From: a virus
Taxonomy: Duplodnaviria > Heunggongvirae > Uroviricota > Caudoviricetes
Strand: one strand, 5' to 3'
Virus record (IMG/VR): IMGVR_UViG_2693429582_000021
Location: 1 to 11,066 of that record
Length of the DNA: 11,066 nt
Every line of letters starts with the position of its first letter. Position 1 is the first letter of the stretch. Position numbers and translations under genes: made by a program. The notes below the pieces were generated by a model. It was not told where the DNA came from and ran no database searches. It worked only from the letters and a program-made list of their open reading frames with translations. Positions 1-11,066 of this stretch are shown here, piece by piece.

Positions 1-34
1 GTATTCGCCGCCCGTATTCGTCAGGAGGTGCGCC

Positions 35-265
35 ATGTGCAATAAAAACACGCCGGACGCAGCAGGCGAAGCATTGAAAGTACTGATACATGCGCTTGTG
101 GATATAAATTGCATGGTAGAGATCATGGAGAGGAAATCACAGTCGGAGTACGACAAAAGAAAATTTAAAACAATAAAAATAATTACCAAAAACTCACTGA
201 CAAAAGCTACAGACATCCTCAATGAGGACACTAAAAGAATCAGGGAGAAACTGTGTGATGCATAA
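35..265 (+). CDS. hypothetical small protein (76 aa), first gene of plus-strand operon
   Basis: ORF with strong Shine-Dalgarno (AGGAGG at about 23-28) 6-8 nt upstream of the ATG at 35; no recognisable family from the translation. Confidence 0.5.
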   Translation: MCNKNTPDAAGEALKVLIHALVDINCMVEIMERKSQSEYDKRKFKTIKIITKNSLTKATDILNEDTKRIREKLCDA

Positions 266-485
266 AATACCTTTTGATGTTCTTATTCATTCTGAGAATG
301 CATTAATCCGCGCAAAGGAAATGGAGGCATTATTACTTAAGTTAATGGAAGTGCCGGAAAATGGCGATGAATCATATCCCATGATGTTTTCTGCCGTGCA
401 CACATTATTAACGCCAGTAATTAACGAATTAAATACGGTGATGGCAATTCACGAGAATAATAAAGCGCATCACACCGGAGAATAA
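258..485 (+). CDS. hypothetical small protein (about 75 aa from the ATG at 258; the ORF is open from 222)
   Basis: In-frame ATG at 258 preceded by GGGAGA about 9 nt upstream; overlaps the stop of the previous ORF (263-265), consistent with coupling. Function unknown. Confidence 0.4.
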   Translation: MHKIPFDVLIHSENALIRAKEMEALLLKLMEVPENGDESYPMMFSAVHTLLTPVINELNTVMAIHENNKAHHTGE

Positions 486-490
486 AAACC

Positions 491-790
491 ATGAAACAGA
501 AAAATTCTGGCTTTACTGCCAGCGGCCTCCCTCGGCCTGAAATCCGCCCCGGCGATATTTTCCGGGATAACTACGGCGGCACAGTAACGATTAAACACGT
601 GGCGGGACGGTGCGTTACTTACCGCCGTGATGGGTACGGCTATGACTGCGTGATGCCTGTTTATCAGTTCCGGCGTGATTTTTCCCTGGTACAGACTGCG
701 CCGCGTAACCAGCCCACCAGCAAAGAGAAGGCACGGGTAAATATTCAGGCCATAAGAAAAATGCTTAACGGATTCAGGGGTAAAAAATGA
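491..790 (+). CDS. hypothetical protein (99 aa), translationally coupled to the downstream primase-like gene
   Basis: GGAGA about 10 nt upstream of the ATG at 491; its stop overlaps the start of the next gene as ATGA (787-790). No family recognised. Confidence 0.5.
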   Translation: MKQKNSGFTASGLPRPEIRPGDIFRDNYGGTVTIKHVAGRCVTYRRDGYGYDCVMPVYQFRRDFSLVQTAPRNQPTSKEKARVNIQAIRKMLNGFRGKK

Positions 791-2919
791 AACTGGCACC
801 GAACGTAAAACTATTGCCGAAAGATAAAGGTGAGGAAGCAGTAATTTTTGTGGGGGATGACGCATACAGCCACGCAGAACATTACAGGCAGGGTGGAGAA
901 GCCGGAAAGCGCGGCGACAAAATACCGCCCGTTTATATCGGACGGCGTGACCTGGGTAATCTGGAAAACCTGCGTATTGTGGATGATGGCCGGTTACGCG
1001 TCATGGTCAGACGTGCCGGAAAGCTGGATGGCAAACAGGCGCTACAGATTGAAACCCTGCTCGCAGTAGCTGGTGTTAAGGAAGTCAGTTTTTGTGACGA
1101 GAACGGCGAACTACTGGAGGACTGGACACCACAGCTTGCCCGACTGAAAGACGAATACGAGCGTGGGGAAAGTCTGGTGTTGCCCTTAAAGAAAAAAATC
1201 ACAGAAAACCATGGCGATGATGAATTAAAGCCCCGCGTTGAAAGCCGCGCCGATGGTGTTTTCTGGGTAACGCCCAAAGTGGATAAGCAGTCAGGCGAAA
1301 TTATCCGGCCTGAGACGTGGTTATGTTCCCCGCTTGAACTACTGGGAACGGGAACAATCGGCAAAGAGCATTACCGCGTGATGCGCTGGAAAAAATTAGC
1401 AAATCATGAAGTCATCACAATGGCGATCCCGTGTGGTGGCATTGGCGACCGTGACGGCTGGCGGTTGCTGAAAGACCACGGTTTGAACGTGACAACCAAC
1501 GGTAAATACAGGGCTGTCCTGGCTGACTGGATGCAGTTAAGCGGAAGCCATGAGGAATGGCAGTTAAGCACAACAACGGGCTGGCATTTTGGCGCGTACA
1601 TCATGCCGGATGGTTCGGTCATTGGTGATTGCGAAAAGCCAGTCCTGTTTACCGGAAAAACGGCTGCCGTTAATGGTTATTCCGTGACAGGAACGGCGGA
1701 GGGCTGGCGCGACAGTGTGGCGCGACTGGCTGGTGGTAATCCGTCCATGATGCTGGGAGTGGCGGTATCGTTATCCGCACCATTAATCGGGCTGGTGGGC
1801 GCTGACGGCTTCGGGGTACATCTTTTCGAACAGTCATCGGCAGGGAAAACCACCACACAGAACATAGCATCAAGTTTATGGGGAGAGCCGGACGCGCAAC
1901 GGCTGACCTGGTACGGAACGGCGTTAGGTATCGCCAACGAGGCAGAGGCACACAACGACGGACTGTTACCACTGGATGAAATAGGCCAGGCCGGAAACGC
2001 GCGGGAGGTGTCCACATCGGCTTATACGCTGTTTAACGGTTCCGGTAAATTGCAGGGGGCGAAGGACGGCGGCAACAGGGAGATAAAACACTGGCGAACG
2101 GTGGCAATCAGTACCGGAGAAATGGACGTTGAGACATTCCTCAAAACGGAGGGGATAAAAGTCAAGGCGGGGCAGCTTGTCCGCCTGCTTAACGTGCCAA
2201 TGGAAAAAGCCACACAATTTCACGAATACAGCACCGGAAAGGCGCACGCAGACGCGTTAAAGGATGCCTGGACAGCAAATCACGGGGCGGCGGGGCGTGA
2301 GTGGGTTAAATGGCTGGCAGACCACCAGCAGGAGGCAAAGGATACAGTAAGGGAATGCCGTGAACGGTGGCGCAACCTGATACCGGAGAGCTACGGCGAG
2401 CAGGTCCACCGCGTGGGTGAGCGTTTCGCCATACTGGAGGCCGCACTTGTGCTTTCCGGTCATGTGACTGGCTGGGATGAGCAGGAATGCCGCGATGCCA
2501 TTCAGCATAATTTTAATGCCTGGGTGAAGGAGTTCGGCACGGGCAACAGGGAACACAGGCAGATTATTGAACAGGCTGAGGCGTTTCTTGCGGCCTATGG
2601 CCTGAGCAGGTTCGCCCCTGTCAATTATGACCCTGCCAGCCTGCCGATTTCAGAACTGTACGGCTACAGGGAAAGCGACGGGCGTTATGACGAGCCTGTT
2701 TTGTTTTACGTGCTGCCGGAGCCGTTTAGCTCACATGTGGCGAAGGGATTTAACAAGGATGCCGTAGCAAAGACCCTTCATGAAGCCGGAATGCTGAGAA
2801 AACCAGCCAGCGGGCGAGGATGGCAAATCAGGACACCACGGCTAAAACACCTGAAAGGGGCGCGGCTAAGAGTGTATGGCCTTTTGCTGACGCAGGACTA
2901 CGATGCTGAAAATGATTAA
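787..2919 (+). CDS. replication protein of integrative element/satellite: primase/helicase-like P-loop NTPase (DUF927/SF3-helicase-like architecture)
   Basis: 710-aa uninterrupted ORF; Walker A-like motif SSAGKTT (about nt 1840-1860) and Walker B-like hhhhDE (LLPLDEIG, about nt 1960-1985) in the middle of the protein; large N-terminal domain; immediately followed by an iteron array. Family assignment from pattern recognition, not a search. Confidence 0.8.
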   Translation: MKLAPNVKLLPKDKGEEAVIFVGDDAYSHAEHYRQGGEAGKRGDKIPPVYIGRRDLGNLENLRIVDDGRLRVMVRRAGKLDGKQALQIETLLAVAGVKEVSFCDENGELLEDWTPQLARLKDEYERGESLVLPLKKKITENHGDDELKPRVESRADGVFWVTPKVDKQSGEIIRPETWLCSPLELLGTGTIGKEHYRVMRWKKLANHEVITMAIPCGGIGDRDGWRLLKDHGLNVTTNGKYRAVLADWMQLSGSHEEWQLSTTTGWHFGAYIMPDGSVIGDCEKPVLFTGKTAAVNGYSVTGTAEGWRDSVARLAGGNPSMMLGVAVSLSAPLIGLVGADGFGVHLFEQSSAGKTTTQNIASSLWGEPDAQRLTWYGTALGIANEAEAHNDGLLPLDEIGQAGNAREVSTSAYTLFNGSGKLQGAKDGGNREIKHWRTVAISTGEMDVETFLKTEGIKVKAGQLVRLLNVPMEKATQFHEYSTGKAHADALKDAWTANHGAAGREWVKWLADHQQEAKDTVRECRERWRNLIPESYGEQVHRVGERFAILEAALVLSGHVTGWDEQECRDAIQHNFNAWVKEFGTGNREHRQIIEQAEAFLAAYGLSRFAPVNYDPASLPISELYGYRESDGRYDEPVLFYVLPEPFSSHVAKGFNKDAVAKTLHEAGMLRKPASGRGWQIRTPRLKHLKGARLRVYGLLLTQDYDAEND

Positions 2920-2944
2920 TCTCGCGTGTAGGCGGTAACAATAT

Positions 2945-3272
2945 GTTGTCCCAGTCGTCCCAGAAAGCAATAAGCAAGCGTAACATATTGAATTTTATAG
3001 ATTTCACTTGCAAAAAGTGGGACAACAGCGGGACAACATTCAGGCATTTTGGGACAACATTGCGGCATTTTGGGACGACACGACACGTATTTTTTACCGT
3101 GCCGAAGGGTGGGACAACGCAAAACCCCTCATGTCGTCCCAAAATCGGTAAATGTCGTCCCACTTTGCGGAGTGTGTTTTTAATAAAATCAATAAGTTAA
3201 CATTAAGTGGGACAACCGGGACAACTGGGACGACGTGTTTTGTATATATATACGAAAAATCGAGATCTGAAC
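2945..3272. repeat. iteron array plus AT-rich tract: putative replication origin
   Basis: About 12 copies of the 8-mer GGGAC(A/G)AC in both orientations (plus copies at 3019, 3030, 3051, 3072, 3111, 3209, 3218, 3227; inverted copies GT(T/C)GTCCC at 2945, 2954, 3133, 3154). Three copies sit in a 21-bp tandem unit CATT..GGCATTTTGGGACAAC (3030/3051/3072). An AT-rich stretch TGTATATATATACGAAAAAT (3241-3260) follows. Position directly 3' of the replication gene matches rep-ori organisation in satellites and plasmids. Confidence 0.7.
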
Positions 3273-3273
3273 T

Positions 3274-3516
3274 ATGAAGTCAAACCGCAAACAACCACAC
3301 TACCGCGCCATTGACCTTACAGAGCACTGGCTGAGAGTGGCGATAAAAATCATCGACCGCAACACGGGGGAAGGATACGCGAAAGCACACCCCGAACTGA
3401 TAAGCGCATTCATGGCAACGGCGGCAGCAAACTTTGCCACGCTGACAGAACGGGAGATTGCCGAATCGGAACAGGTGACAACCATCAACATTAAAACCGG
3501 AGAGCAGACAGCATGA
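3274..3516 (+). CDS. hypothetical protein (80 aa)
   Basis: ORF beginning just after the AT-rich tract; its stop overlaps the next start (ATGA at 3513-3516). No family recognised. Confidence 0.5.
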   Translation: MKSNRKQPHYRAIDLTEHWLRVAIKIIDRNTGEGYAKAHPELISAFMATAAANFATLTEREIAESEQVTTINIKTGEQTA

Positions 3517-3935
3517 CAGCACAGATAGCGGCTTACGGGCGGCTGGTGGCTGACCCGCAGTTAAAGACCACCAGCAAAGGGACACAAATGGCGATGGCGA
3601 GTATGGCGGTTCCCCTGCCGTGCAGCCAGGCCGATGACGGAACGGCGACGATGTGGTTATCCGTCCTGGCGTTTGGCAGACAGGCCGACGCACTGGCCAG
3701 ACACCACAAAGGCGAACTGGTGAGCGTGGCGGGTAACATGCAGGTAAGCCAGTGGACAGGCCAGAACGGCGAAACGCGGCAGGGCTGGCAGGTTATCGCA
3801 GACAGCGTAATCAGTGCGCGAACGGCGCGACCGGGCGGCAAAAAAGGTCAACAGGGCCAGGCTACTGACGCGCTGAACAGGGCAAAACAACAGGCGGGTA
3901 ATGATGATCCGTACGAAGACAACATACCGTTTTAA
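3513..3935 (+). CDS. single-stranded DNA-binding (SSB-like, OB-fold) protein
   Basis: 140-aa translation shows an SSB-like pattern: N-terminal GRLVADPQLK resembling E. coli SSB GNLGQDPEVR, conserved W...FG...A...KG..V...G......W....G..R spacing, and a Gly/Gln-rich tail ending in acidic residues plus DNIPF (SSB tails end D-D-D-I-P-F). Confidence 0.7.
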   Translation: MTAQIAAYGRLVADPQLKTTSKGTQMAMASMAVPLPCSQADDGTATMWLSVLAFGRQADALARHHKGELVSVAGNMQVSQWTGQNGETRQGWQVIADSVISARTARPGGKKGQQGQATDALNRAKQQAGNDDPYEDNIPF

Positions 3936-3971
3936 TTCACAACAGCGAACAGAGTTATTACAGGGGAAAGC

Positions 3972-4496
3972 ATGACAAAGCTGACCATTAACCGAAAACC
4001 GAAAGGCATTTACGGCACGCTGCAGAAAACGACGCAGGCGATACAGCAGCAGGATAAAACCACATCGGCGCATAAAGTGATACCCGGCAATCAGAACGCA
4101 CAGCAGAAGCCCACAGGGGCGACACCGTGGCGGCATATGACCAAACGCCAGCGCAAAAACCGCAGACGCGTTAACCGCCTTACTGAGATGTGGCCTGACT
4201 TATTCAGCCGGGAAGCGCCAAAACCGCTGAAGGTGGGGATATTCGACGACCTGATGCAGGATATCGCCGTCAGGGGGCTGGCATTCGGGCCGGGGGCATT
4301 ACGTGCGACGCTGGCATCTTATGCGCAGTCTCCACGCTATTACCGCGCCTTAATGGCTGGTGGGGTACGCTACGACCTGAAAGGCCAGCCATGTGGCGAG
4401 GTGACATCACAGGAACAACAGGACGCAGAAACGCGGCTGATGATGCTGAATGAGAAGCGTAAACGCCGGACAGCAAAGGAGAAGACAGGCGCATGA
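3972..4496 (+). CDS. FinO/ProQ-family RNA-binding protein (RNA chaperone)
   Basis: 174-aa ORF; the C-terminal two thirds align with the F-plasmid FinO core (WP.LF....P.L..GI.D.L..D.A.R...., Y...M.AG..RYD..G); basic N- and C-terminal tails typical of the family. SD-like GGGGAAA upstream of the ATG. Confidence 0.8.
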   Translation: MTKLTINRKPKGIYGTLQKTTQAIQQQDKTTSAHKVIPGNQNAQQKPTGATPWRHMTKRQRKNRRRVNRLTEMWPDLFSREAPKPLKVGIFDDLMQDIAVRGLAFGPGALRATLASYAQSPRYYRALMAGGVRYDLKGQPCGEVTSQEQQDAETRLMMLNEKRKRRTAKEKTGA

Positions 4497-4780
4497 TTCG
4501 TGACAGCAAAGCGGAAGAACTGGAGGCTAAAGGGCTGTACCGAAGAGCGACGGCGCGGTGGGCTGAGGTTATGCAACTGGTGAACACCGATAAGGAGCGC
4601 GAACAGGCGGCAAAGCGTCGCGCGGAATGTATCCGTAAGGCAGCACGCCCACCCGTTATGGCGGATAACTTCGGAGCGCTGAAAGAGGCTGTAAACCGCA
4701 CTCATGCGGTGATGGGGATGGAAGACGCGGGTAAATCCGTCTGGCGGAACTATCCAAAGCAGCCGGGCAATAATCAGTGA
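4493..4780 (+). CDS. small regulator, possibly PerC/Pch-family transcriptional activator
   Basis: 95-aa ORF coupled to the FinO-like gene (ATGA overlap at 4493-4496). N-terminus MIRDSKAEELEAKGLYRRATARWAEV resembles my recollection of PerC/Pch N-termini; the family call is tentative. Confidence 0.4.
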   Translation: MIRDSKAEELEAKGLYRRATARWAEVMQLVNTDKEREQAAKRRAECIRKAARPPVMADNFGALKEAVNRTHAVMGMEDAGKSVWRNYPKQPGNNQ

Positions 4781-4862
4781 TGCCGGATATTATCCTGAAA
4801 AATGACCATCACTCCCGTGGGCGGATAACATAAAATCCTGCATATACGCAGATACACAGACG

Positions 4863-4887
4863 AAGCCGGAACACTCCGGCTTTTTTT
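4863..4887 (+). terminator. rho-independent terminator ending the plus-strand replication/regulatory operon
   Basis: Stem AAGCCGGA / TCCGGCTT with loop ACAC, followed by a run of seven T (4881-4887). Confidence 0.7.
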
Positions 4888-4965
4888 ACGGGTCCTTCCA
4901 GAGGGGTGGCCTTACCGCGAGGCGACGGACGCGCGGAAATCGCCAAATTTTCGCATTTTTATCGG
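4888..4965 (+). other. cos-like site A (diverged cosQ-cosN-cosB-like sequence)
   Basis: ACGGGTCCTTCCAG (4888-4901) matches the lambda cosQ-region motif ACGGGTCCTTTCCGG. About 32 nt downstream, GAGGCGACGGACG CGCGGAAATCGCC AAATTTTCGCATTTTTATCGG parallels lambda GGGCGGCGACCT CGCGGGTTTTCGC TATTTATGAAAATTTTCCGG, roughly 65-70% identity by eye. Confidence 0.45.
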
Positions 4966-5233
4966 TCATCACCACCAGCGCAATTTATTGATAATGAAGG
5001 TTAAAAAAATTCCTGGTGTCGAAAACGCCTGTTTTTTGTTCACCACTGAATCATGCCGCATCACGATAACCCACAAGGCTGGTGGTGATGCGTTATGGTC
5101 CCTACGTTGCCATCCCCCTGACCTCATGGCATTATCCGGCGTGAACGAGCGGTTATTCTCCGTACTCTTAATCGTTGTTCATGGTTATTTGCTTTGTGGT
5201 AGCTTACATTTCCTGATGGTTATTATCCTTCCG

Positions 5234-5257
5234 CCCCGTAATCACGGGGTTTTTTTT
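5234..5257 (+). terminator. rho-independent terminator inside the non-coding region
   Basis: Perfect hairpin CCCCGT-AATC-ACGGGG followed by eight T (5250-5257). No credible upstream CDS, so it may terminate a small RNA; the 128-aa ORF 4988..5374 reads straight through it. Confidence 0.6.
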
Positions 5258-5295
5258 GTCTGCGATTTGCCGTTCTCCGTTGCGCTGGTGGTAAC

Positions 5296-5331
5296 GTCAC
5301 GATGTGTCACGACATGTCACCATCACGTCAC
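5296..5331. promoter_or_regulatory. phased array of four GTCAC motifs at about 10-bp spacing (putative protein-binding site)
   Basis: GTCAC at 5296, 5306, 5316 and 5327 within aacGTCACgatgtGTCACgacatGTCACcatcacGTCACg; one helical turn apart, which would place all sites on the same face of the DNA. Confidence 0.4.
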
Positions 5332-5720
5332 GCTGATGGCGAAAGTCAGGGTTAACCAGTACCGGAACGGGTAGCCCGATGTACTGTTACCGTTCTGCTG
5401 GCTGGTGGAGTAATTGATAACGGTTATCATCAATGGGAGGGGTGGATCAAATCCCTGTAGTCCTGGCTGTCAGGGACCGCCGCCCAACCCTTCTTCACAT
5501 CGCCGCAGGTTCGAAAACTTTTTTTTGGGAAGGTGCGCACAGACTTGATAGATAAAACCTATCAGACAAAACCACGCCAACCCCGCGCCATTGCTGGCAT
5601 CGTTAAAAAAACTCACTCCACCAGCAGGCTAAAAAACCGTGATTTTTCCGGTTTTATGGGCTGAAAAGGGGCTCCCTAAAAAACACCTCTTACACTGCCG
5701 GACAGGGGCGGTGACTTTTC

Positions 5721-5850
5721 ACGGGTCCTTTCCGGGGATCTGAAACACCACGGGGCGGCAGACGCGCAGATTTTCACTATTTATAAAAATTTTTCAGGGA
5801 AAAAGCATGTCGGTACTTCTTGCATGTAACATTATGTTTTTATTGCAACT
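5721..5850 (+). other. cos: cos site B: lambda-like cosQ, cosN and cosB upstream of terS
   Basis: 5721-5735 ACGGGTCCTTTCCGG is identical to the lambda cosQ-region motif. 5753-5764 GGGCGGCAGACG aligns with lambda cosN GGGCGGCGACCT. The following CGCAGATTTTCAC TATTTATAAAAATTTTTCAGGG ... CTTCTTGCATGTAAC ATTATGTTTTTATT parallels lambda cosB. The cosN-to-terS-start distance (189 nt) is essentially that of lambda cosN to Nu1 (about 190 nt). Confidence 0.75.
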
Positions 5851-5941
5851 AACTATCATAAACATACGACACCATAACGCCGGAAAATCCCGTTTTTCAG
5901 GCGTTTCATGTCGGAGGTGGTTTTTGATGAGGATTTGATAA

Positions 5942-6526
5942 ATGAATGTTAACAAAAAGAGACTGGCGGAGATTTTCGGTGTTGATCCGCGCACAATTGA
6001 GCGCTGGCAGATGCAAGGGCTTCCCCATGTATCTGGTGGCGGAAAAGGTGTGGAGGTGACTTTCGACTCTGCACAGGTGATCGAATGGTATGTACAGAGG
6101 GAGAAGGAGATCGAAAACGAAAAACTCCGCAGGGAGCTTGATGATTTACGTGCTGCTGGTGAATCAGATTTACAGCCAGGCACAACAGAGTACGAACGCT
6201 ACCGTCTCACCAAAGCACAGGCGGACGGGCAGGAACTGAAGAACGCCAGAGAGACAGGGGAAGTTATAGATACTGAGTTCGTACTCTGTGCGCTTCGTGG
6301 ACTGGCGAGTCAGATTTCTTCGATCATGGATAGTTTGCCGCTCACAATGCAAAGGCAGTTCCCCGGGATGACTCCGGCAATGCTCGATGGCCTGAGGAAG
6401 GAAACAGCACGAGCCTGTAATGCGTGCGCTAAAACTGCCGATAACCTACCCCGCATTCTGGAAGACTATCTGATGGAAACAACCGGAAACGTGCCGGAGA
6501 AGTTACGGCAACAGAAAGGTGAGTGA
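5942..6526 (+). CDS. terS: terminase small subunit, lambda Nu1 family (orphan; no terL follows)
   Basis: 194-aa translation closely parallels lambda Nu1 over the N-terminal wHTH and ATP-binding region: [49 protein letters not shown]...LR.A.E.DLQPGT.EYER.RLT.AQAD.QELKNAR. The C-terminal 40 aa diverge. Nothing resembling a large terminase follows on either strand. Confidence 0.9.
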
Positions 6527-6553
6527 CAACCGCGCAATTATTGAACAAAACTG

Positions 6554-6616
6554 AGAAAGGATCTGATAACGTTATTTTTGGCCCAAAATGACCACTGTCA
6601 GATCCTTTCTTTTTCT
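6554..6616. terminator. large palindrome downstream of terS, possible bidirectional terminator or protein-binding site
   Basis: Perfect 13-bp inverted repeat AGAAAGGATCTGA (6554-6566) / TCAGATCCTTTCT (6598-6610) with an inner ATTTTTGG-C-CCAAAAT hairpin, followed by TTTTTC on the plus strand. Confidence 0.45.
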
Positions 6617-6619
6617 GAT

Positions 6620-6753
6620 GATTTTACGATTAAACAATGAGTTACAGAGAAGAAGAACGGATCTGACTTTTCCCGAAAAATTTTCATAAACAGTTAAGAA
6701 TTGCGCGTATCCGTACCCCCGGCGCTCAAGATTCTGGAAAGGACCCGTGACAC
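6620..6753 (-). other. cos-like site C (inverted orientation relative to cos B)
   Basis: Minus strand reads TCACGGGTCCTTTCCAGAATCTTGAGCGCC GGGGGTACGGAT ACGCGCAATTCTTAAC TGTTTATGAAAATTTTTCGGG AAAAG TCAGATCCGTTCTTCTCTGTAACTCATTG. This parallels lambda cosQ / cosN / R3 / TATTTATGAAAATTTTCCGG / CGTTTCCGTTCTTCTTCGTCATAACTTAATG. The cosQ-to-cosN spacing is about 4 nt shorter than in site B. Confidence 0.65.
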
Positions 6754-6760
6754 CTGACCA

Positions 6761-6783
6761 ACAAAAAAGCCCCCGAAGGGGGC
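6761..6783 (-). terminator. rho-independent terminator of the minus-strand toxin-immunity operon
   Basis: Hairpin GCCCCC-GAA-GGGGGC (6768-6782) with an A-run at 6762-6767 on plus, giving a T-run after the stem on minus, immediately 3' of the immunity gene stop at 6788. Confidence 0.7.
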
Positions 6784-6787
6784 TAAA

Positions 6788-7036
6788 TTACGCATCTTTA
6801 AAACTGGATTTGCCATTAGCTAAACGCCAGGTTTTAACTTCTTGTACGATGGCTTCCGGACTATCGTCTTTTCCGTTCTCTGGATAAAAAATTAGATCAG
6901 AGCCTGATGGATGTTCAGAGAGGCGCCTGAATTCTCTGACTAACTGCTCGCTTTCTTTTTCTGTTCCTTCTGCATTACATATTTTTCGAACAAGATCTAA
7001 GAATTCATTTTCAGTATAGTCGTTTATTGTTTTCAC
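6788..7036 (-). CDS. colicin/pyocin DNase immunity protein, Im7/Im9 family
   Basis: 82-aa translation [24 protein letters not shown]....[40 protein letters not shown] matches Im9 (…SDYTEAEFLQLVTTICNA….[40 protein letters not shown]). GTG start 1 nt after the toxin stop, with AGGGGA SD inside the toxin 3' end. Confidence 0.85.
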
Positions 7037-7037
7037 G

Positions 7038-8729
7038 TTATTTTCCCCTGTGAATTTCTATATGCCGCTTTGGTGTTGTGATACCCATATTATCAACGTT
7101 ATAAACTTCGCCCCCCTCACTTATAGGTTTAATATGGTGTATTTCGTAACGTTCCCTCCCACCAACTCGCTCCACTTCCCTTGTGAATGGTGAACGTCCT
7201 TTGCGAATGTTCGTGAGGTTGTGTGCTCTGAACTGTCTTGACAAATCAGCATCGTTTGCCACTTCTGCCCAAAATGCCTCCCTGAATCGATCAAAATTCG
7301 CAAATGTTCGCCCACGCATCCGCTCCGCAATCTGGCTGGGTACTGGTGCACCATTTCCCTTATCGGCATCCACCAGCCACGCCCCGCTAATTTTTTGTCC
7401 TTTCCCTGTTACCTGCCCGGCGTTATTCCTGATGTAAATATAAATCGGCGGTATATCCGGGAATGGCAGGATCAGAATGTAATCCGCAAAATCCTTTTCT
7501 TCCGGGGCCGGGCTGGTTGTGGCGTGTAATCCCGTGTCATCCGGTAACGGGTCCACCATCACCGGATTCGGCAGCACTGGCGGGTACTGATTTCCCGTGT
7601 GGTACGGTACATCAATCCCCGGATTATCCGGCGTCCAGATGAGTGTGATACGCGGGTCTTCCTCCGTGGTGAATGTGTACGCCTTTCGTCTGTCGTCCCA
7701 CTCCATCCGGCGCACGCGCACCCTGTCCTGTCCCGGTGGCGTATGCCAGCCATGCGGAACGGGGTTCCCCCGGCTGTTCGTCTCCCAGGTAAAGCGAACA
7801 CGGGTAGGCACTTCCCTAGCCTGTTCGGCCCTCATACGGTCGATAAAATCCTGTTCCCCGTCATTCAGCCGACCGGGCATCATCCCTATCAGAAACGCCG
7901 CCAGTGGCAGCCCCGCAACCCCGGTCGCAGTTTCACCCACGACGGCCCACGTTCCCCGGATGGCAAAATTCCCCGCCACCGGACGCAGAACGCTCGCCCC
8001 GGCAATTGCCGCTCTGGCCCGTTGTGCGCGCTCCGCTTCTTCAACCGCACGCTGATAATCCATTTCCTCGTGATGGCCGTTCCACCATTTCCACAGTGCA
8101 CTGCGTTTCTTCGGCTTCGGGATATCCTCCGGCGCAACCAGTTTTTTCTTTTTGACCGCCTGTGCACGCTGCGGGGTTTCCGTGTCCGTCACCGGGTCAG
8201 TCTGCGGAACGGCCTGATAAATCCCCATCGGTGCAAAGTTGGTATGCGGCTCCCGCTGGTCGCCCGCGTCGTTGCATCCCTCACCGCGCAGACAGGATTT
8301 TGCAAACACCCGGTTACGTTCCCGTTCTTCCTCCCGGCGTTTTTCTTCAGCTTCCCGTTCTGCCTTGCGTTGTGCTATCAGTTCCGCCTGTTTTTTCTGT
8401 GCAATTTCTGCCGGCGACGGCCCCGCCCCCATCCACTGACCGAGCGGGGCAATAATCCGGTTTGAACCTTCAGGGCAGCCACAGTGAACAACACAGCCAT
8501 CAACGGCAATAGGAATATCTATCACCTTAAAACGGGCTTCTCCTTCTGCCACCATGCCGAGCTTTCCGCACGCCGGGCAGGGGGTGGTTTTGTCCCCCTT
8601 ACGAATAAGACCGTAACCACAGACGTTGTAGTTAGGGACAGGAAGGGAAGTAATCAGCCATGCGCCGGTGGTGGTTTTGTCACAGGAAAGCGCCATTCCC
8701 CTGCCGTGTATATCCGGCCTGTATGTCAT
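7038..8729 (-). CDS. polymorphic nuclease toxin: Cys-rich N-terminal domain, charged coiled-coil linker, pyocin-S-like region, C-terminal colicin E9-type HNH DNase
   Basis: The 563-aa C-terminus ([49 protein letters not shown]…[42 protein letters not shown]) matches the colicin E9/E7 DNase domain including the HNH motif. N-terminal 100 aa carry six Cys in CxxC and CxCGC clusters (possible Zn-binding, PAAR-like GD.T..C..CG pattern). Residues about 115-145 form a Lys/Glu/Arg-rich linker. No signal peptide. Resembles chromosomal bacteriocin-like genotoxins such as Usp, unverified. Confidence 0.9.
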
Positions 8730-9217
8730 GGCTTACACTCCGGCACTACCAGAAAATCCGCTGGCATACTTTCGCCTTCACGACAACAAAGTAATGCTGT
8801 TCGCTGCGGCGTACTGATAATTTCATCCCCGTTATCCAGTTGGCTGCCAACCAGCGCATACCCTTTCCCGTGACAGCTAAACGCACTGCCGGAACCACTG
8901 ACAATACGGGCCGTTGTGCCGTCCTGATAAGTCACCTCATCCCCGACCATCGCCATTTCAGCCATCTCTCCGGTGCTGTCAGCGACTTCGCAGCCGGAAC
9001 TGGCGGAAGACACCACCCCGCCATTACGGGTAAGGCTACCGGTAATGGCATGTCGCCAGATAGCCACTATCGGATGTTGACGGCAAAATTCCTCCTGCTC
9101 CCTGATTATCGCCAGCGCATCATCGGACATATCAGCAAGCGCTTCTTCTGTAAAAGGGGATTTATCCAGTTCTGCCAGTACATCGGCGGTCAGTTCGTTG
9201 GTATATTGCTTCATCAT
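8726..9217 (-). CDS. hypothetical 163-aa protein upstream of the toxin, possibly PAAR-like or adaptor
   Basis: Start MM at 9217 with AGGAAA SD-like upstream; stop overlaps the toxin start (ATGA coupling at 8726-8729). Acidic N-terminal 50 aa, then a Gly/Ser-rich region with repeated VGD and GS motifs (MAMVGDEVTYQDG, IVSGSGSAFSCHGKGYALVGS) reminiscent of PAAR repeats, and a Cys-containing C-terminus. Confidence 0.6.
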   Translation of the reverse strand: MMKQYTNELTADVLAELDKSPFTEEALADMSDDALAIIREQEEFCRQHPIVAIWRHAITGSLTRNGGVVSSASSGCEVADSTGEMAEMAMVGDEVTYQDGTTARIVSGSGSAFSCHGKGYALVGSQLDNGDEIISTPQRTALLCCREGESMPADFLVVPECKP

Positions 9218-10050
9218 GTTTCTGTTTTTCCTGTGGTTAACAATCGACCAGAATCATAATGAAAGGGAATGCAAAAAAATTGATGGATATCAAAATGAAA
9301 AATAAAATCATCCCGGTAAAACAGGATATCTACCCCACCAGCATCCCTGGATTTTCAGATAGTTGCTTTTAGCCTCTGAACAACATCTGCTGGTGGCTGA
9401 TAATTACAATAATTCCTGCCCCCTGGCGTTTCTGAGCATGTTTACCGCGAATTTTGCGCAAAACACCTTAACAATTCTTAAATTTTAAAAACACTTCAGT
9501 GATAAGCATCACCGCTCCCGCTCACATTTGACACAGGCAACTCCATCTGGCAGGTGAAAATCAAATTTATTTATATATTTCAATTGATTGTAAACTGGTC
9601 TAATGACAGGGGAGAAAAAAGACTGTACAGGTGAAAACAGAAATAATTTTTAATTATCAATGAATTATCACACATGCTGCCGCCGCCATGAAAATGCAAA
9701 AACTAGCCGTTTTCTGCGCATCCGTCGCCCCGCGGTAAGGGGCACCCCACCGGGAGGACCCACGACGATCAGGGCGTTTTATCAACGTCGTGTGTTATGC
9801 CGGATTAACTGCGTACGTAATACGTGCACATCCCGAACAGGAGCAGCCAGAATCAGCGCCGCTGACGTTGTTTTGTGGTTATCCCCCTGTCATGAATCAT
9901 CGCAATGGTTTTATGTGTTCTGCGTTGCGCTGGTGGGTTATTCCACCATTGGTGGGAAACATGGCACCACATCCACCAGCTTAAACGCGCTTCACCTTCC
10001 CGGCATCAGTCGCCACAATTACGGCATTGCTTTCCATCACCACGGAGGCC

Positions 10051-10341
10051 ATGACCATGACCGAAGCCGAAATGCTCAAAATGATTCGCCGTGCTGCCGG
10101 AATCAGCCAGGCAGCAGGCAAACAGGAGGCCACGCAACCGGACAGCGTGATAGCCGAAAATTACGCGCGTGTGGTGGCTGATGTGATGCGCCGTGACGGT
10201 ATCGAGCTTAACGGCGTGGATATGCGCGATATACGAACCAGAGTTCTCGAGTTGCTGGCATGTCGTCGCCGTTCTCAGCAACGGAGGGAGAGCGCGAAAA
10301 ATACTTACCAGTGGAAGAAGCCGGAGCGGTTACGGCGGTAG
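10051..10341 (+). CDS. hypothetical protein (about 95 aa; the ORF is open from a TTG at 10027)
   Basis: GGAGG at 10044-10048 with ATG at 10051 and 10057; basic C-terminus; no family recognised. Confidence 0.45.
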   Translation: MTMTEAEMLKMIRRAAGISQAAGKQEATQPDSVIAENYARVVADVMRRDGIELNGVDMRDIRTRVLELLACRRRSQQRRESAKNTYQWKKPERLRR

Positions 10342-10577
10342 TGTCAGCATGATTTGCGAGGTAGTAATACTGACTCGCAACAGAGTGACCGATAGCCACC
10401 CTGTTCAACCGTTCCGGCTGGCTGGGCAGATTTTGCGCGGGTCTTATAGTCCCTCACAACAGAGTAAATAAAATTGACTTGGTTACAGAGTAACCAAACC
10501 GGAGATTCCCGGTTTGCTCAAAAAATGACAATGAGTTACGCCCCCTAACCTAAGTAATCCTTACATTCACTGCATCA

Positions 10578-10592
10578 TCACCATGATGGTGA
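10578..10592. promoter_or_regulatory. 7-1-7 palindrome TCACCAT-G-ATGGTGA (candidate operator)
   Basis: Perfect 7-bp inverted arms in an intergenic region. Confidence 0.3.
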
Positions 10593-10706
10593 CGCAGCCC
10601 ACCAGCAACCATAACGATTTCCGTTACAGTTGATGTGCTTTTTTGCTGGTAAGGCGTAACCCGTTGATTGTTCCAGAATCCCCCATTGGGGGAAGCTGAA
10701 AAACTC

Positions 10707-10731
10707 ACCCACCAGATTCTGAATGGTGAAA
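10707..10731. promoter_or_regulatory. 9-7-9 palindrome CTGAATGGT-gaaaatg-ACCATTCAG (hairpin or operator)
   Basis: Perfect 9-bp inverted repeat; shares the ATGGTGA core with the palindrome at 10578; a second hairpin CCCGAAA…TTTCGGG follows at about 10747-10773. Confidence 0.3.
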
Positions 10732-10976
10732 ATGACCATTCAGCTTCATGTGTCCATTTTCCCGAAACAGGAAAACCCGTTTTCGGGAGAAGGTGCGATC
10801 ATGTTCGTCATACCTGTTCCGTTGAAACGGTAATACCCCATTCCGGCGTAGCTGGTGGGTATGATGCCGATGCCGGGATCTCGGTATCGGTTTATCCGTG
10901 ATCATCCACCAGCTTGATAACGGATAACAGGGAGTCATAACGGTTAAAATTGTATACTTTTGCAGCAAACATTTTT

Positions 10977-11021
10977 AGCTACACGTTAAGCTACACGATT
11001 TTTGAGTTGAAATTTTCAACT
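10977..11021. promoter_or_regulatory. direct repeat AGCTACACG x2 followed by palindrome AGTTGAAA/TTTCAACT (candidate regulatory site for a gene beyond the window)
   Basis: AGCTACACGTTAAGCTACACG, then GAGTTGAAATTTTCAACTTCAAC; AT-rich context at the window edge. Confidence 0.3.
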
Positions 11022-11066
11022 TCAACTAAATCAATTAGTTATTGGCATGTTTTGAATACTCTCGTG

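Follow-up and report, generated by a model that had tools for sequence, protein, structure and literature searches.

What fills the non-coding gap in front of the small terminase gene of a phage satellite? In most descriptions, a satellite depends on a single helper packaging system. The question is raised here by a stretch of 11,066 nucleotides, positions 1 to 11,066 of the IMG/VR virus record IMGVR_UViG_2693429582_000021, which we call the window. The window is part of an integrated phage satellite of Escherichia coli, of the phage-inducible chromosomal island (PICI) kind: it shows the features of the Gram-negative cos-type islands, namely an integrase at a tRNA or specific att site, an AlpA-type regulator, a primase-replicase with an origin of replication (ori), cos, a lack of capsid, tail and lysis genes, and a size of ~10-15 kb. 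The interval under study makes up most of the gap between perC, which ends at 4780, and the gene for the small terminase subunit (terS), which starts at 5942. A first-pass annotation, made from the letters alone, described 4960-5720 as a protein-free interval of ~760 bp between two cos-like sites, A and B, and proposed a small-RNA or regulatory locus. The bounds hold, and there is no long conserved coding sequence; the statement that there is no credible coding sequence at all goes too far, since relatives keep an open reading frame (ORF) of 21 codons. A repeat finder places the edges at two direct lambda-type cos-like repeats, 4883-4937 and 5716-5770, which are 833 bp apart. The interval is probably the middle of a composite packaging cassette of the PICI, and not primarily an RNA locus.

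A sensitive blastn comparison of the gap with 50,697 phage records returned three independent matches. They correspond to three cos types arranged in tandem and in the same orientation, in the order A, C, B, and each matches the DNA upstream of a different TerS family. The genes that follow the three phage counterparts are assigned by Pfam to DUF1441 (A), Terminase_4 (C) and Phage_Nu1 (B). Between sites A and B, the phage matches cover only 5412-5562.

This middle segment, cos C (5412-5562, plus strand), is by its homology a complete cos site of the HK97 type, the type that depends on an HNH endonuclease; cutting by TerL with HNH would leave 3' cohesive ends of 10 nt. It is 78-87% identical over ~150 nt to the interval from HNH stop to TerS start in phi467, vB_EcoS-640R1 and more than 100 IMG/VR phage contigs, and the limits of the homology coincide with the stop codon of phage HNH on the left and the start codon of phage TerS on the right. 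In the two loci examined (L006 and L007) the match falls between the genes for the HNH endonuclease and TerS (Terminase_4); a 26-nt pattern taken from cos C occurs in at least 119 IMG/VR contigs, nearly all with HNH, TerS and TerL; and the phage-type matches listed, at 82-83% identity, lie under an HNH gene in 17 of 17 cases. This cos type is present in 1064 of 5426 complete E. coli genomes. An alignment of 73 unique phage copies has 130 columns with a conservation of 95% or more, and the window carries the phage consensus base at 104 of them.

The internal organisation of cos C also follows HK97. The genome ends of HK97, with GACCGCCGCCAAA before the junction and GTTTGAA after it, align with GACCGCCGCCCAA and CCC in the window, which predicts a cut near 5485-5495. 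The site contains a palindrome at 5415-5429, the motif GGATCAAATC, the predicted cut region GACCGCCGCC-CAA (~5475-5495) and a presumptive TerS-binding block at 5503-5528 that ends in T8. In HK97 itself, the target of TerS is an element of G plus A-tract that spans +15 to +29 (PMC11331095), and the T8 run of the window aligns with the A-tract of that site: TCGAAAAC followed by T8 (5511-5526) stands opposite CCCGA followed by T7 in HK97, and is a predicted site for a TerS of the phi467 type. The window and HK97 (PMC11331095) share the GGATCAAATC ... GACCGCCGCC block at the genome-end junction and, downstream of it, a G plus A-tract element that is presumptive in the window. They differ in setting, as the phage site lies between the HNH and TerS genes whereas the window copy sits in an island without HNH, Terminase_4 TerS or TerL. 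The window copy is also nearer the phi467 group (~80%) than HK97, and its left edge has turned into a perfect 7-1-7 palindrome.

Three elements that had been read as parts of an RNA locus fall inside this site. The palindrome TGATAAC-G-GTTATCA lies exactly at 5415-5429, as first described, and is invariant in 19 of 19 related sequences; it is perfect in the islands and imperfect in the phages. The T8 run is real, at 5519-5526 rather than one base earlier at 5518-5525. The hairpin reported at 5472-5496 reduces to a 4-pair AGGG/CCCT stem, which is at chance level and overlies the predicted cleavage region. Because all three map into the HK97-type homology of 5412-5562, they are to be taken as parts of the cos site, and their assignment to an RNA locus falls.

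The outer two sites are lambda-like. Cos A (4883-5052, plus strand) consists of a cosQ, ACGGGTCCTTCC at 4888-4899, a cosN-like core at ~4914-4937 and a tail that resembles cosB. The site and cos B form a direct repeat. A blastn match (4883-5048) links cos A, at 73% identity over 166-169 nt, to the region that immediately precedes the DUF1441 gene and TerL of Stx phage 1720a-02. Cos B (5716-5940, plus strand) was delimited by alignment to the annotated cos of phage 21, to which it is 74-75% identical (M81255, X02501; blastn match 5716-5928). The alignment places cosQ/R4 at 5721-5732, identical to phage 21, and recognisable I2, R3 and R1 elements at 5782-5796, 5803-5818 and 5904-5919; R2 is degenerate. 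A 12-nt cohesive end, GGGCGGCAGACG, is predicted at 5753-5764, and this cosN core reads GGGCGGCGACCT in phage 21. Site B accordingly has the make-up of a lambda/21-type cos, with cosQ, cosN and a cosB that includes R boxes and IHF sites, and it is followed by a TerS of the Nu1 family. That protein, the small terminase subunit of the island itself, is encoded directly downstream at 5942-6526 (plus strand; Pfam Phage_Nu1, E = 1.9e-68; lambda TerS in PDB, E = 2e-39).

Cos A would thus derive from phages with a DUF1441-type TerS and cos C from HK97/phi467-like phages with a Terminase_4 TerS and HNH, and cos B would be of the phage-21/lambda type. Judged from these homologies, the satellite can probably make use of several helper phages that are unrelated to one another. 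The window has its own Nu1-family TerS and no DUF1441 gene, whereas relatives have DUF1441 after cos A. In two of them the gene lies right after that site (L002, 11345-11854; L003, 11168-11677) and belongs to the same family as the gene in TerS position in Stx phage 1720a-02; these islands therefore have two different small-terminase-like proteins. In the window the DUF1441 gene was lost or never present. A sequence search with the DUF1441 protein, considered as a possible Rpp, gave no PDB match.

The sites are separated by two spacers, 5049-5411 and 5563-5715, which are confined to this island family (28 of 5426 complete E. coli genomes) and match no phage or prophage, lenient thresholds included. 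The left spacer, 5049-5411, was considered as the place of a fourth phage cos, an idea rejected because neither a phage nor a prophage matched it at E up to 1. What stands out most in the spacers is Chi, GCTGGTGG, which the first-pass annotation did not notice and which is contained in the perfect inverted repeats of 11-13 nt that a repeat finder detects in them. RecBCD recognises 5'-GCTGGTGG-3' when it approaches from its 3' side (PMC12315714). Two Chi flank the predicted cut of cos C, one at 5401-5408 on the plus strand, 76 bp to its left, and one at 5618-5625 on the minus strand, ~133 bp to its right, each in the orientation that is recognised from its own end; the left one is within an 11-nt perfect inverted repeat paired with 5615-5625. 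Among 23 island copies, Chi in the active orientation is found at 76 bp on the left in 19 and at ~133 bp on the right in all 23. In phage loci, active-orientation Chi within 200 bp of the same cos was found in 0 of 91 and 0 of 98.

Three further Chi lie in the interval. One, at 4972-4979 on the minus strand, is ~45 bp to the right of the cos A core, and its phage counterpart reads CCACCAGT, one base off Chi; the others, at 5078-5085 and 5284-5291 on the plus strand, are each kept in 12 of 15 family sequences. In the alignment of the 15 distinct family sequences the 5618 Chi is invariant and the other Chi of the interval are kept in 12-13. Five Chi in 654 bp of the interval are an enrichment over the rest of the window (P about 0.003). 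The window as a whole has 20, against 0.39 expected from shuffles, and Chi is its commonest octamer, the next one having 8 copies; chromosomal-average density would give ~2.4. Those outside the interval stand at 714, 1729, 1791, 2322, 3542, 3568, 4356, 7370, 9335, 9389, 9929, 9973, 10599, 10851 and 10906, and Chi often occur in close opposite-strand pairs. Related islands have 1.1-2.1 Chi per kb. The lambdoid prophage of CFT073 that encodes Gam, Bet and Exo has 0 in 46.6 kb, and P4 has 0. No Gam-like RecBCD inhibitor is among the gene families identified in the island.

Taken together as a packaging cassette, these elements suggest the following course. The replicated concatemer of the island would be cut and packaged by the terminase of whichever helper type is present, and three island copies of ~13.4 kb would make up the content of a ~40-kb head, in line with the discussion of EcCICFT073 in PMC6092414. 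Whether RecBCD entered at the cohesive ends of injected DNA or of cut concatemers, it would encounter a Chi in the proper orientation within ~80-140 bp of either cos C end, and would there cease degradation and load RecA. Lambdoid phages that are rich in Chi and devoid of recombination modules have been described (PMC12315714, PMC3784561). The LLS-like phages among them (PMC12315714; for the dichotomy of Chi versus Gam/Red, PMC3784561) share with the island many Chi and the lack of a RecBCD inhibitor or recombination module; their Chi are clustered near the end at which RecBCD enters, and activity depends on orientation relative to cos. They differ from the island in that the Chi of LLS are strongly one-oriented (20 of 23) with a cluster at the right end, whereas those of the island have equal orientations and lie on both sides of a captured cos. 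The Chi of the island are, moreover, 8 to 9 times denser than in the chromosome, and the element is a satellite whereas LLS is a phage. The preferred 3' flanks of Chi (PMC5041463) are uninformative for the sites of the window.

Several observations weigh against this reading. The island copies of cos C are 91-99% identical to one another and at most 83% identical to the phage-type matches listed, so that they form a group of their own; the diverged copies could be adapted, or they could have decayed beyond use. The predicted cohesive-end bases vary among them (GCC, CGC, TAC, TGC). Chi is enriched throughout the island, with 10 per strand and 12 of the 20 outside the main coding sequences, so the position of Chi near cos could partly reflect a general enrichment in non-coding DNA, and each flanking Chi is missing from a few relatives. 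A unit with several cos copies of the lambda type (A, B and two partial copies, A' and B') might be cut prematurely, and transfer of EcCICFT073 rose when cos2 was deleted (PMC6092414). In favour of a link to HK97-like helpers, at least two cos C copies are found in 16 of 28 island-bearing genomes, against ~19% of other genomes with any copy; the count ignores strain kinship and pools second copies within an island (as in L139) with prophage copies.

The explanation that holds up best beside the cassette concerns 5107-5257, which, from its signals, has the look of an independent transcription unit of small size. On this account, what functions in the interval would be either a small RNA of ~115 nt, ending at the terminator of 5233-5257 and possibly a ProQ/FinO partner, or a 21-residue hydrophobic peptide of the type-I-toxin or small-membrane-protein kind. 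We give this an even chance, and it can coexist with the packaging cassette. Upstream of 5230, where the first-pass annotation asked for promoter prediction, there is a conserved sigma-70 promoter-like site (5107-5135, plus strand): TTGCCA, a 17-bp spacer and CATTAT, with an extended -10 TG (TGgCATTAT) and with both hexamers conserved in the family. The terminator claimed at 5234-5257 is borne out at 5233-5257 on the plus strand, as CCCCGTAATCACGGGG followed by T8, with a stem at 5233-5250 of 7 pairs (5 of them G-C) and a loop of 4; it is invariant in 19 related sequences. Between the two lies the body of the unit (5141-5206, plus strand), which has 9% variable columns, the lowest share in the interval. 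The whole of 5107-5257 is the most conserved part of the interval, with a mean pairwise difference of 0.026 for the block and 0.020 for the terminator against 0.07-0.16 for the flanks.

The body can be read in two ways. In relatives it encodes the hydrophobic 21-codon ORF, MNERLFSVLLIVVHGYLLCGS, which ends in TAA or TGA in 17 of 19 distinct sequences and starts with ATG in 16 and GTG in 3; both substitutions within the first four codons are synonymous. As RNA, the unit is predicted to form three hairpins and folds better than its shuffles (z = -2.49), and the first stem, 5141-5182, has 14 pairs with no pair-breaking change. The three substitutions in this stem all keep pairing, and two of them are also synonymous; the RNA and peptide readings are therefore inseparable. 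The ProQ/FinO-domain gene just upstream (3972-4496), which belongs to the replication and regulation operon of the island and itself implies an RNA partner, makes such a partner plausible.

Other results speak against the unit, or limit it. The stem shows no compensatory double change among relatives. A covariance-model scan of the whole window with Rfam at E up to 1, a check that the RNA proposal invited, gave nothing in 4780-5942. No Pfam or NCBIfam match was found for any peptide, and the sole PHROGs match is weak (E = 0.82, obtained with the 77-aa ORF as query); these profile searches thus gave no match to families of type I toxins or small membrane proteins (Ibs, Ldr, TisB, Hok and others). 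The ORF has no Shine-Dalgarno sequence, and the window version has a GTG start and has lost its stop, which has turned into TTA. No antisense target turned up, as matches of the candidate RNA to the island and to 1.1 Mb of helper-like phage DNA are no better than those of shuffles. In one relative, L022, the small-unit segment is missing completely, although cos C, the right spacer and cos B are retained along with most of the TerS gene. The unit also explains just ~150 of the 760 bp. Of the proposed small-RNA or regulatory locus, then, 5107-5257 finds partial support and the rest of the interval does not.

The same holds in part for the structures whose conservation in homologous islands had been put forward as a check: the terminator and the palindrome are invariant, but the hairpin at 5633-5655 is not. 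This A/T-rich inverted repeat, found by the repeat finder and weak in support, does form a 7-pair stem, of which the central pair is broken in 9 of 19 relatives. Further candidates in the interval were rejected. A 128-aa ORF at 4988-5374 is stopped in relatives at 5204 (TAA or TGA in 17 of 19; TTA in the window), and the frames of the remaining ORFs, minus-strand ones included, are broken by indels of 28 and 74 bp. ARAGORN found no tRNA or tmRNA for a motif resembling GGTTCGAA, and there is no minus-strand promoter-like site in 5100-5400 that could serve an antisense partner of the peptide. The 74-bp segment is absent from the window (insertion point ~5283) and present in 8 of 15 distinct sequences of the first alignment, for instance in L004 at 9224-9300 and L005 at 9519-9600. 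It opens a hydrophobic ORF (...AVLVWGVLAMVQAVAFLVRDFLRSLLCWW...) in which synonymous and non-synonymous changes are mixed and the downstream frame is not conserved.

A fuller version of the cassette reading combines these elements, and we hold it tentatively, at somewhat less than even. It would make the region a general-purpose cassette for three unrelated terminase systems in which each cut end is guarded by Chi, and the repeats of Chi plus cos would drive the inversions and duplications of the relatives; 5107-5257 would be an addition, an RNA linked to ProQ/FinO or a toxin-like peptide that acts on helper or host.

A regulatory region for TerS and the late genes is an unlikely account of the interval. 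Here the palindrome, the GGTTAT repeats and a GTCACG array would be putative operators, for PerC, an AlpA-like protein or helper activators, and the terminator would insulate TerS from the upstream operon. In its favour are the perfection of the palindrome in the islands, the gene for a PerC-family activator that ends at 4780, and the repeats themselves. The phased GTCAC array had been seen correctly: four GTCAC(G/C) units at 5296-5332 start at 5296, 5306, 5316 and 5327, a spacing of 10, 10 and 11 bp. The two-unit pattern GTCACNNNNNGTCAC, with one mismatch allowed, has 3 matches in the window against 0.46 expected. Within the family the array has 3 or 4 units, in which conserved GTCACG cores alternate with variable 4-nt spacers; the repeat is therefore under selection. 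The frame across the array is not conserved, owing to the 74-bp indel upstream and a 61-bp deletion in some relatives. In the favoured cassette reading, too, the array probably binds a protein of the island or of a helper. Against the regulatory account, the plus strand has no TerS promoter-like site in 5260-5940, and in several relatives the TerS gene is inverted, lost or truncated with the cassette intact.

Two other identities for the array were rejected: replication iterons, as the ori field uses a different unit, TGGGAC(A/G)AC, and the R boxes of phage 21 (CATGTCGG), to which the resemblance is loose and which are not enriched as a motif. GGTTAT occurs 5 times within 360 bp (5066-5427), of 13 in the window. 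One copy is the right arm of the palindrome, and three stand ~33 bp apart at 5151, 5183 and 5218, the last not conserved.

The least probable explanation, that cos C and the spacers are a recombination scar, hitch-hiking non-functional leftovers from helper prophages (for instance from imprecise excision of an island inserted in TerL), would fit the relatives inserted ~1.5 kb from the same cos in HK97-like prophages, the rearranged and indel-rich cassettes and the divergence of the island cos C from every phage copy, but several points speak against it: the captured piece is exactly the non-coding cos interval without flanking HNH or TerS coding DNA, its mean pairwise difference among relatives is low (0.062) with the 104 of 130 phage-conserved columns kept, cos C is in every family member examined, including L022 without the left spacer, and a lack of function would not readily account for satellite-specific Chi that stand on either side at fixed distances.

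Copies of the packaging cassette that are 83-99% identical occur in 28-30 of 5426 complete E. coli genomes and also in contigs from IMG/VR and metagenomes. Among many relatives the cassette is rearranged, by inversion, duplication or indels, or has lost TerS. The terS segment or the whole cassette is inverted or duplicated in L002, L003, L012, L015 and L139, as is expected from recombination between repeats. The window contains two partial inverted cos copies on the minus strand: B', a copy of cos B at 6641-6750 (self-BLAST, 73% over 112 nt) with GGGTCCT on the minus strand, and A', a copy of cos A at 9688-9761 (81% over 74 nt). B' lies just after terS and A' after the cargo, and together they bracket the module of PAAR, S-type pyocin and immunity genes.

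The same cargo follows the small terminase gene in the island of E. coli strain C5, a 97% identical copy that adjoins tRNA-Pro. Its genes run in the order integrase, helix-turn-helix regulator, Icd-like, DUF4222, replicative helicase, SSB, ProQ/FinO, PerC, a 1.1-kb gap and TerS. The helicase slot is annotated in C5 as 'helicase RepA family'; in L002-L004 it is occupied by a DUF927 gene, as it is in the window to judge from ORF position. Directly after this DUF927 primase-helicase gene lies a field at 2940-3240 that resembles a replication origin, with an A/T-rich stretch and at least 12 copies, in both orientations, of the iteron TGGGAC(A/G)AC (TGGGACAAC). IMG/VR contigs of the island measure 12.3-13.7 kb, and the 13.7-kb contig L014 is practically identical to the window. 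A DNA pattern search of species-representative genomes for relatives in other species gave 0 matches, and a search with the ProQ protein found one decayed element in E. ruysiae, without cos. A weak match resembling a fluoride riboswitch at 8647-8700 on the minus strand lies inside the pyocin coding sequence (18.5 bits against a gathering score of 34, E = 0.25) and is most likely due to chance.

Islands with a 78-96% identical primase and ~87-96% identical SSB and ProQ genes are found inserted in the TerL gene of HK97-like prophages, which supports the link of the island to such helpers. In these (L067, L024, L076 and L100) the island lies directly downstream of HNH, cos C and TerS, ~1.5 kb from the cos of the C type. 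The island of L067 (1-14920) also has its own capsid, protease, portal and HNH genes, and is a helper-embedded, capsid-forming relative.

The island may be compared, from published descriptions, with EcCICFT073 and related cos-type PICIs (Fillol-Salom et al. 2018, PMC6092414; 2019, PMC6739421), with which it shares an integrase, an AlpA-type regulator, a primase-replicase with ori and accessory genes. EcCICFT073 has two functional cos sites in one PICI, of which cos1 acts together with Rpp, a mechanism to which HK97 was reported to be insensitive (PMC6092414, PMC6739421). Its two sites are lambda-like, with cosQ and cosN like those of the helper and a different cosB, and the helper terminase packages multimers in full-size heads. 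Some E. coli PICIs encode TerS (strains IHE3034 and 18098), as the window does. Unlike EcCICFT073, the island of the window is predicted to add a third, unrelated cos class, of the HK97 type with a 3' overhang and HNH dependence. The literature searched describes no Chi clustering in EcCICFT073-type PICIs, and mentions neither an E. coli PICI with an HK97-type cos nor three tandem cos classes nor a Chi-bracketed satellite cos.

A Gram-positive counterpart is SaPIbov5 of Staphylococcus aureus, for which Quiles-Puchalt et al. reportedly described cos plus pac dual packaging in 2014. It, too, is a satellite with a cos copy of HNH-dependent cos helpers that can be packaged also by another helper class, and so follows the same principle of multiple packaging signals for multiple helpers. 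It differs from the island in host, in its unrelated sequences and in having two systems (cos and TerS/pac), not three tandem cos classes, and to our knowledge no bracketing by Chi or AddAB sites has been reported for it. Passages of PMC8569155 and PMC5052747 cite the dual packaging of SaPIbov5.

If all three cos sites are functional, they would give a satellite a simple route, by sequence alone, to a wider helper range. HK97-like phages, found in about one fifth of E. coli genomes, would then be open to hijack by cos-type PICIs. A cos bracketed by Chi would give small elements, for which a Gam-like inhibitor is too costly, a passive defence against RecBCD, and would have direct use in the design of PICI or cosmid delivery vectors. 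Should the fuller version of the cassette reading be true, a satellite of ~13 kb without a RecBCD inhibitor could be mobilised by several helper families and could survive RecBCD in a new host.

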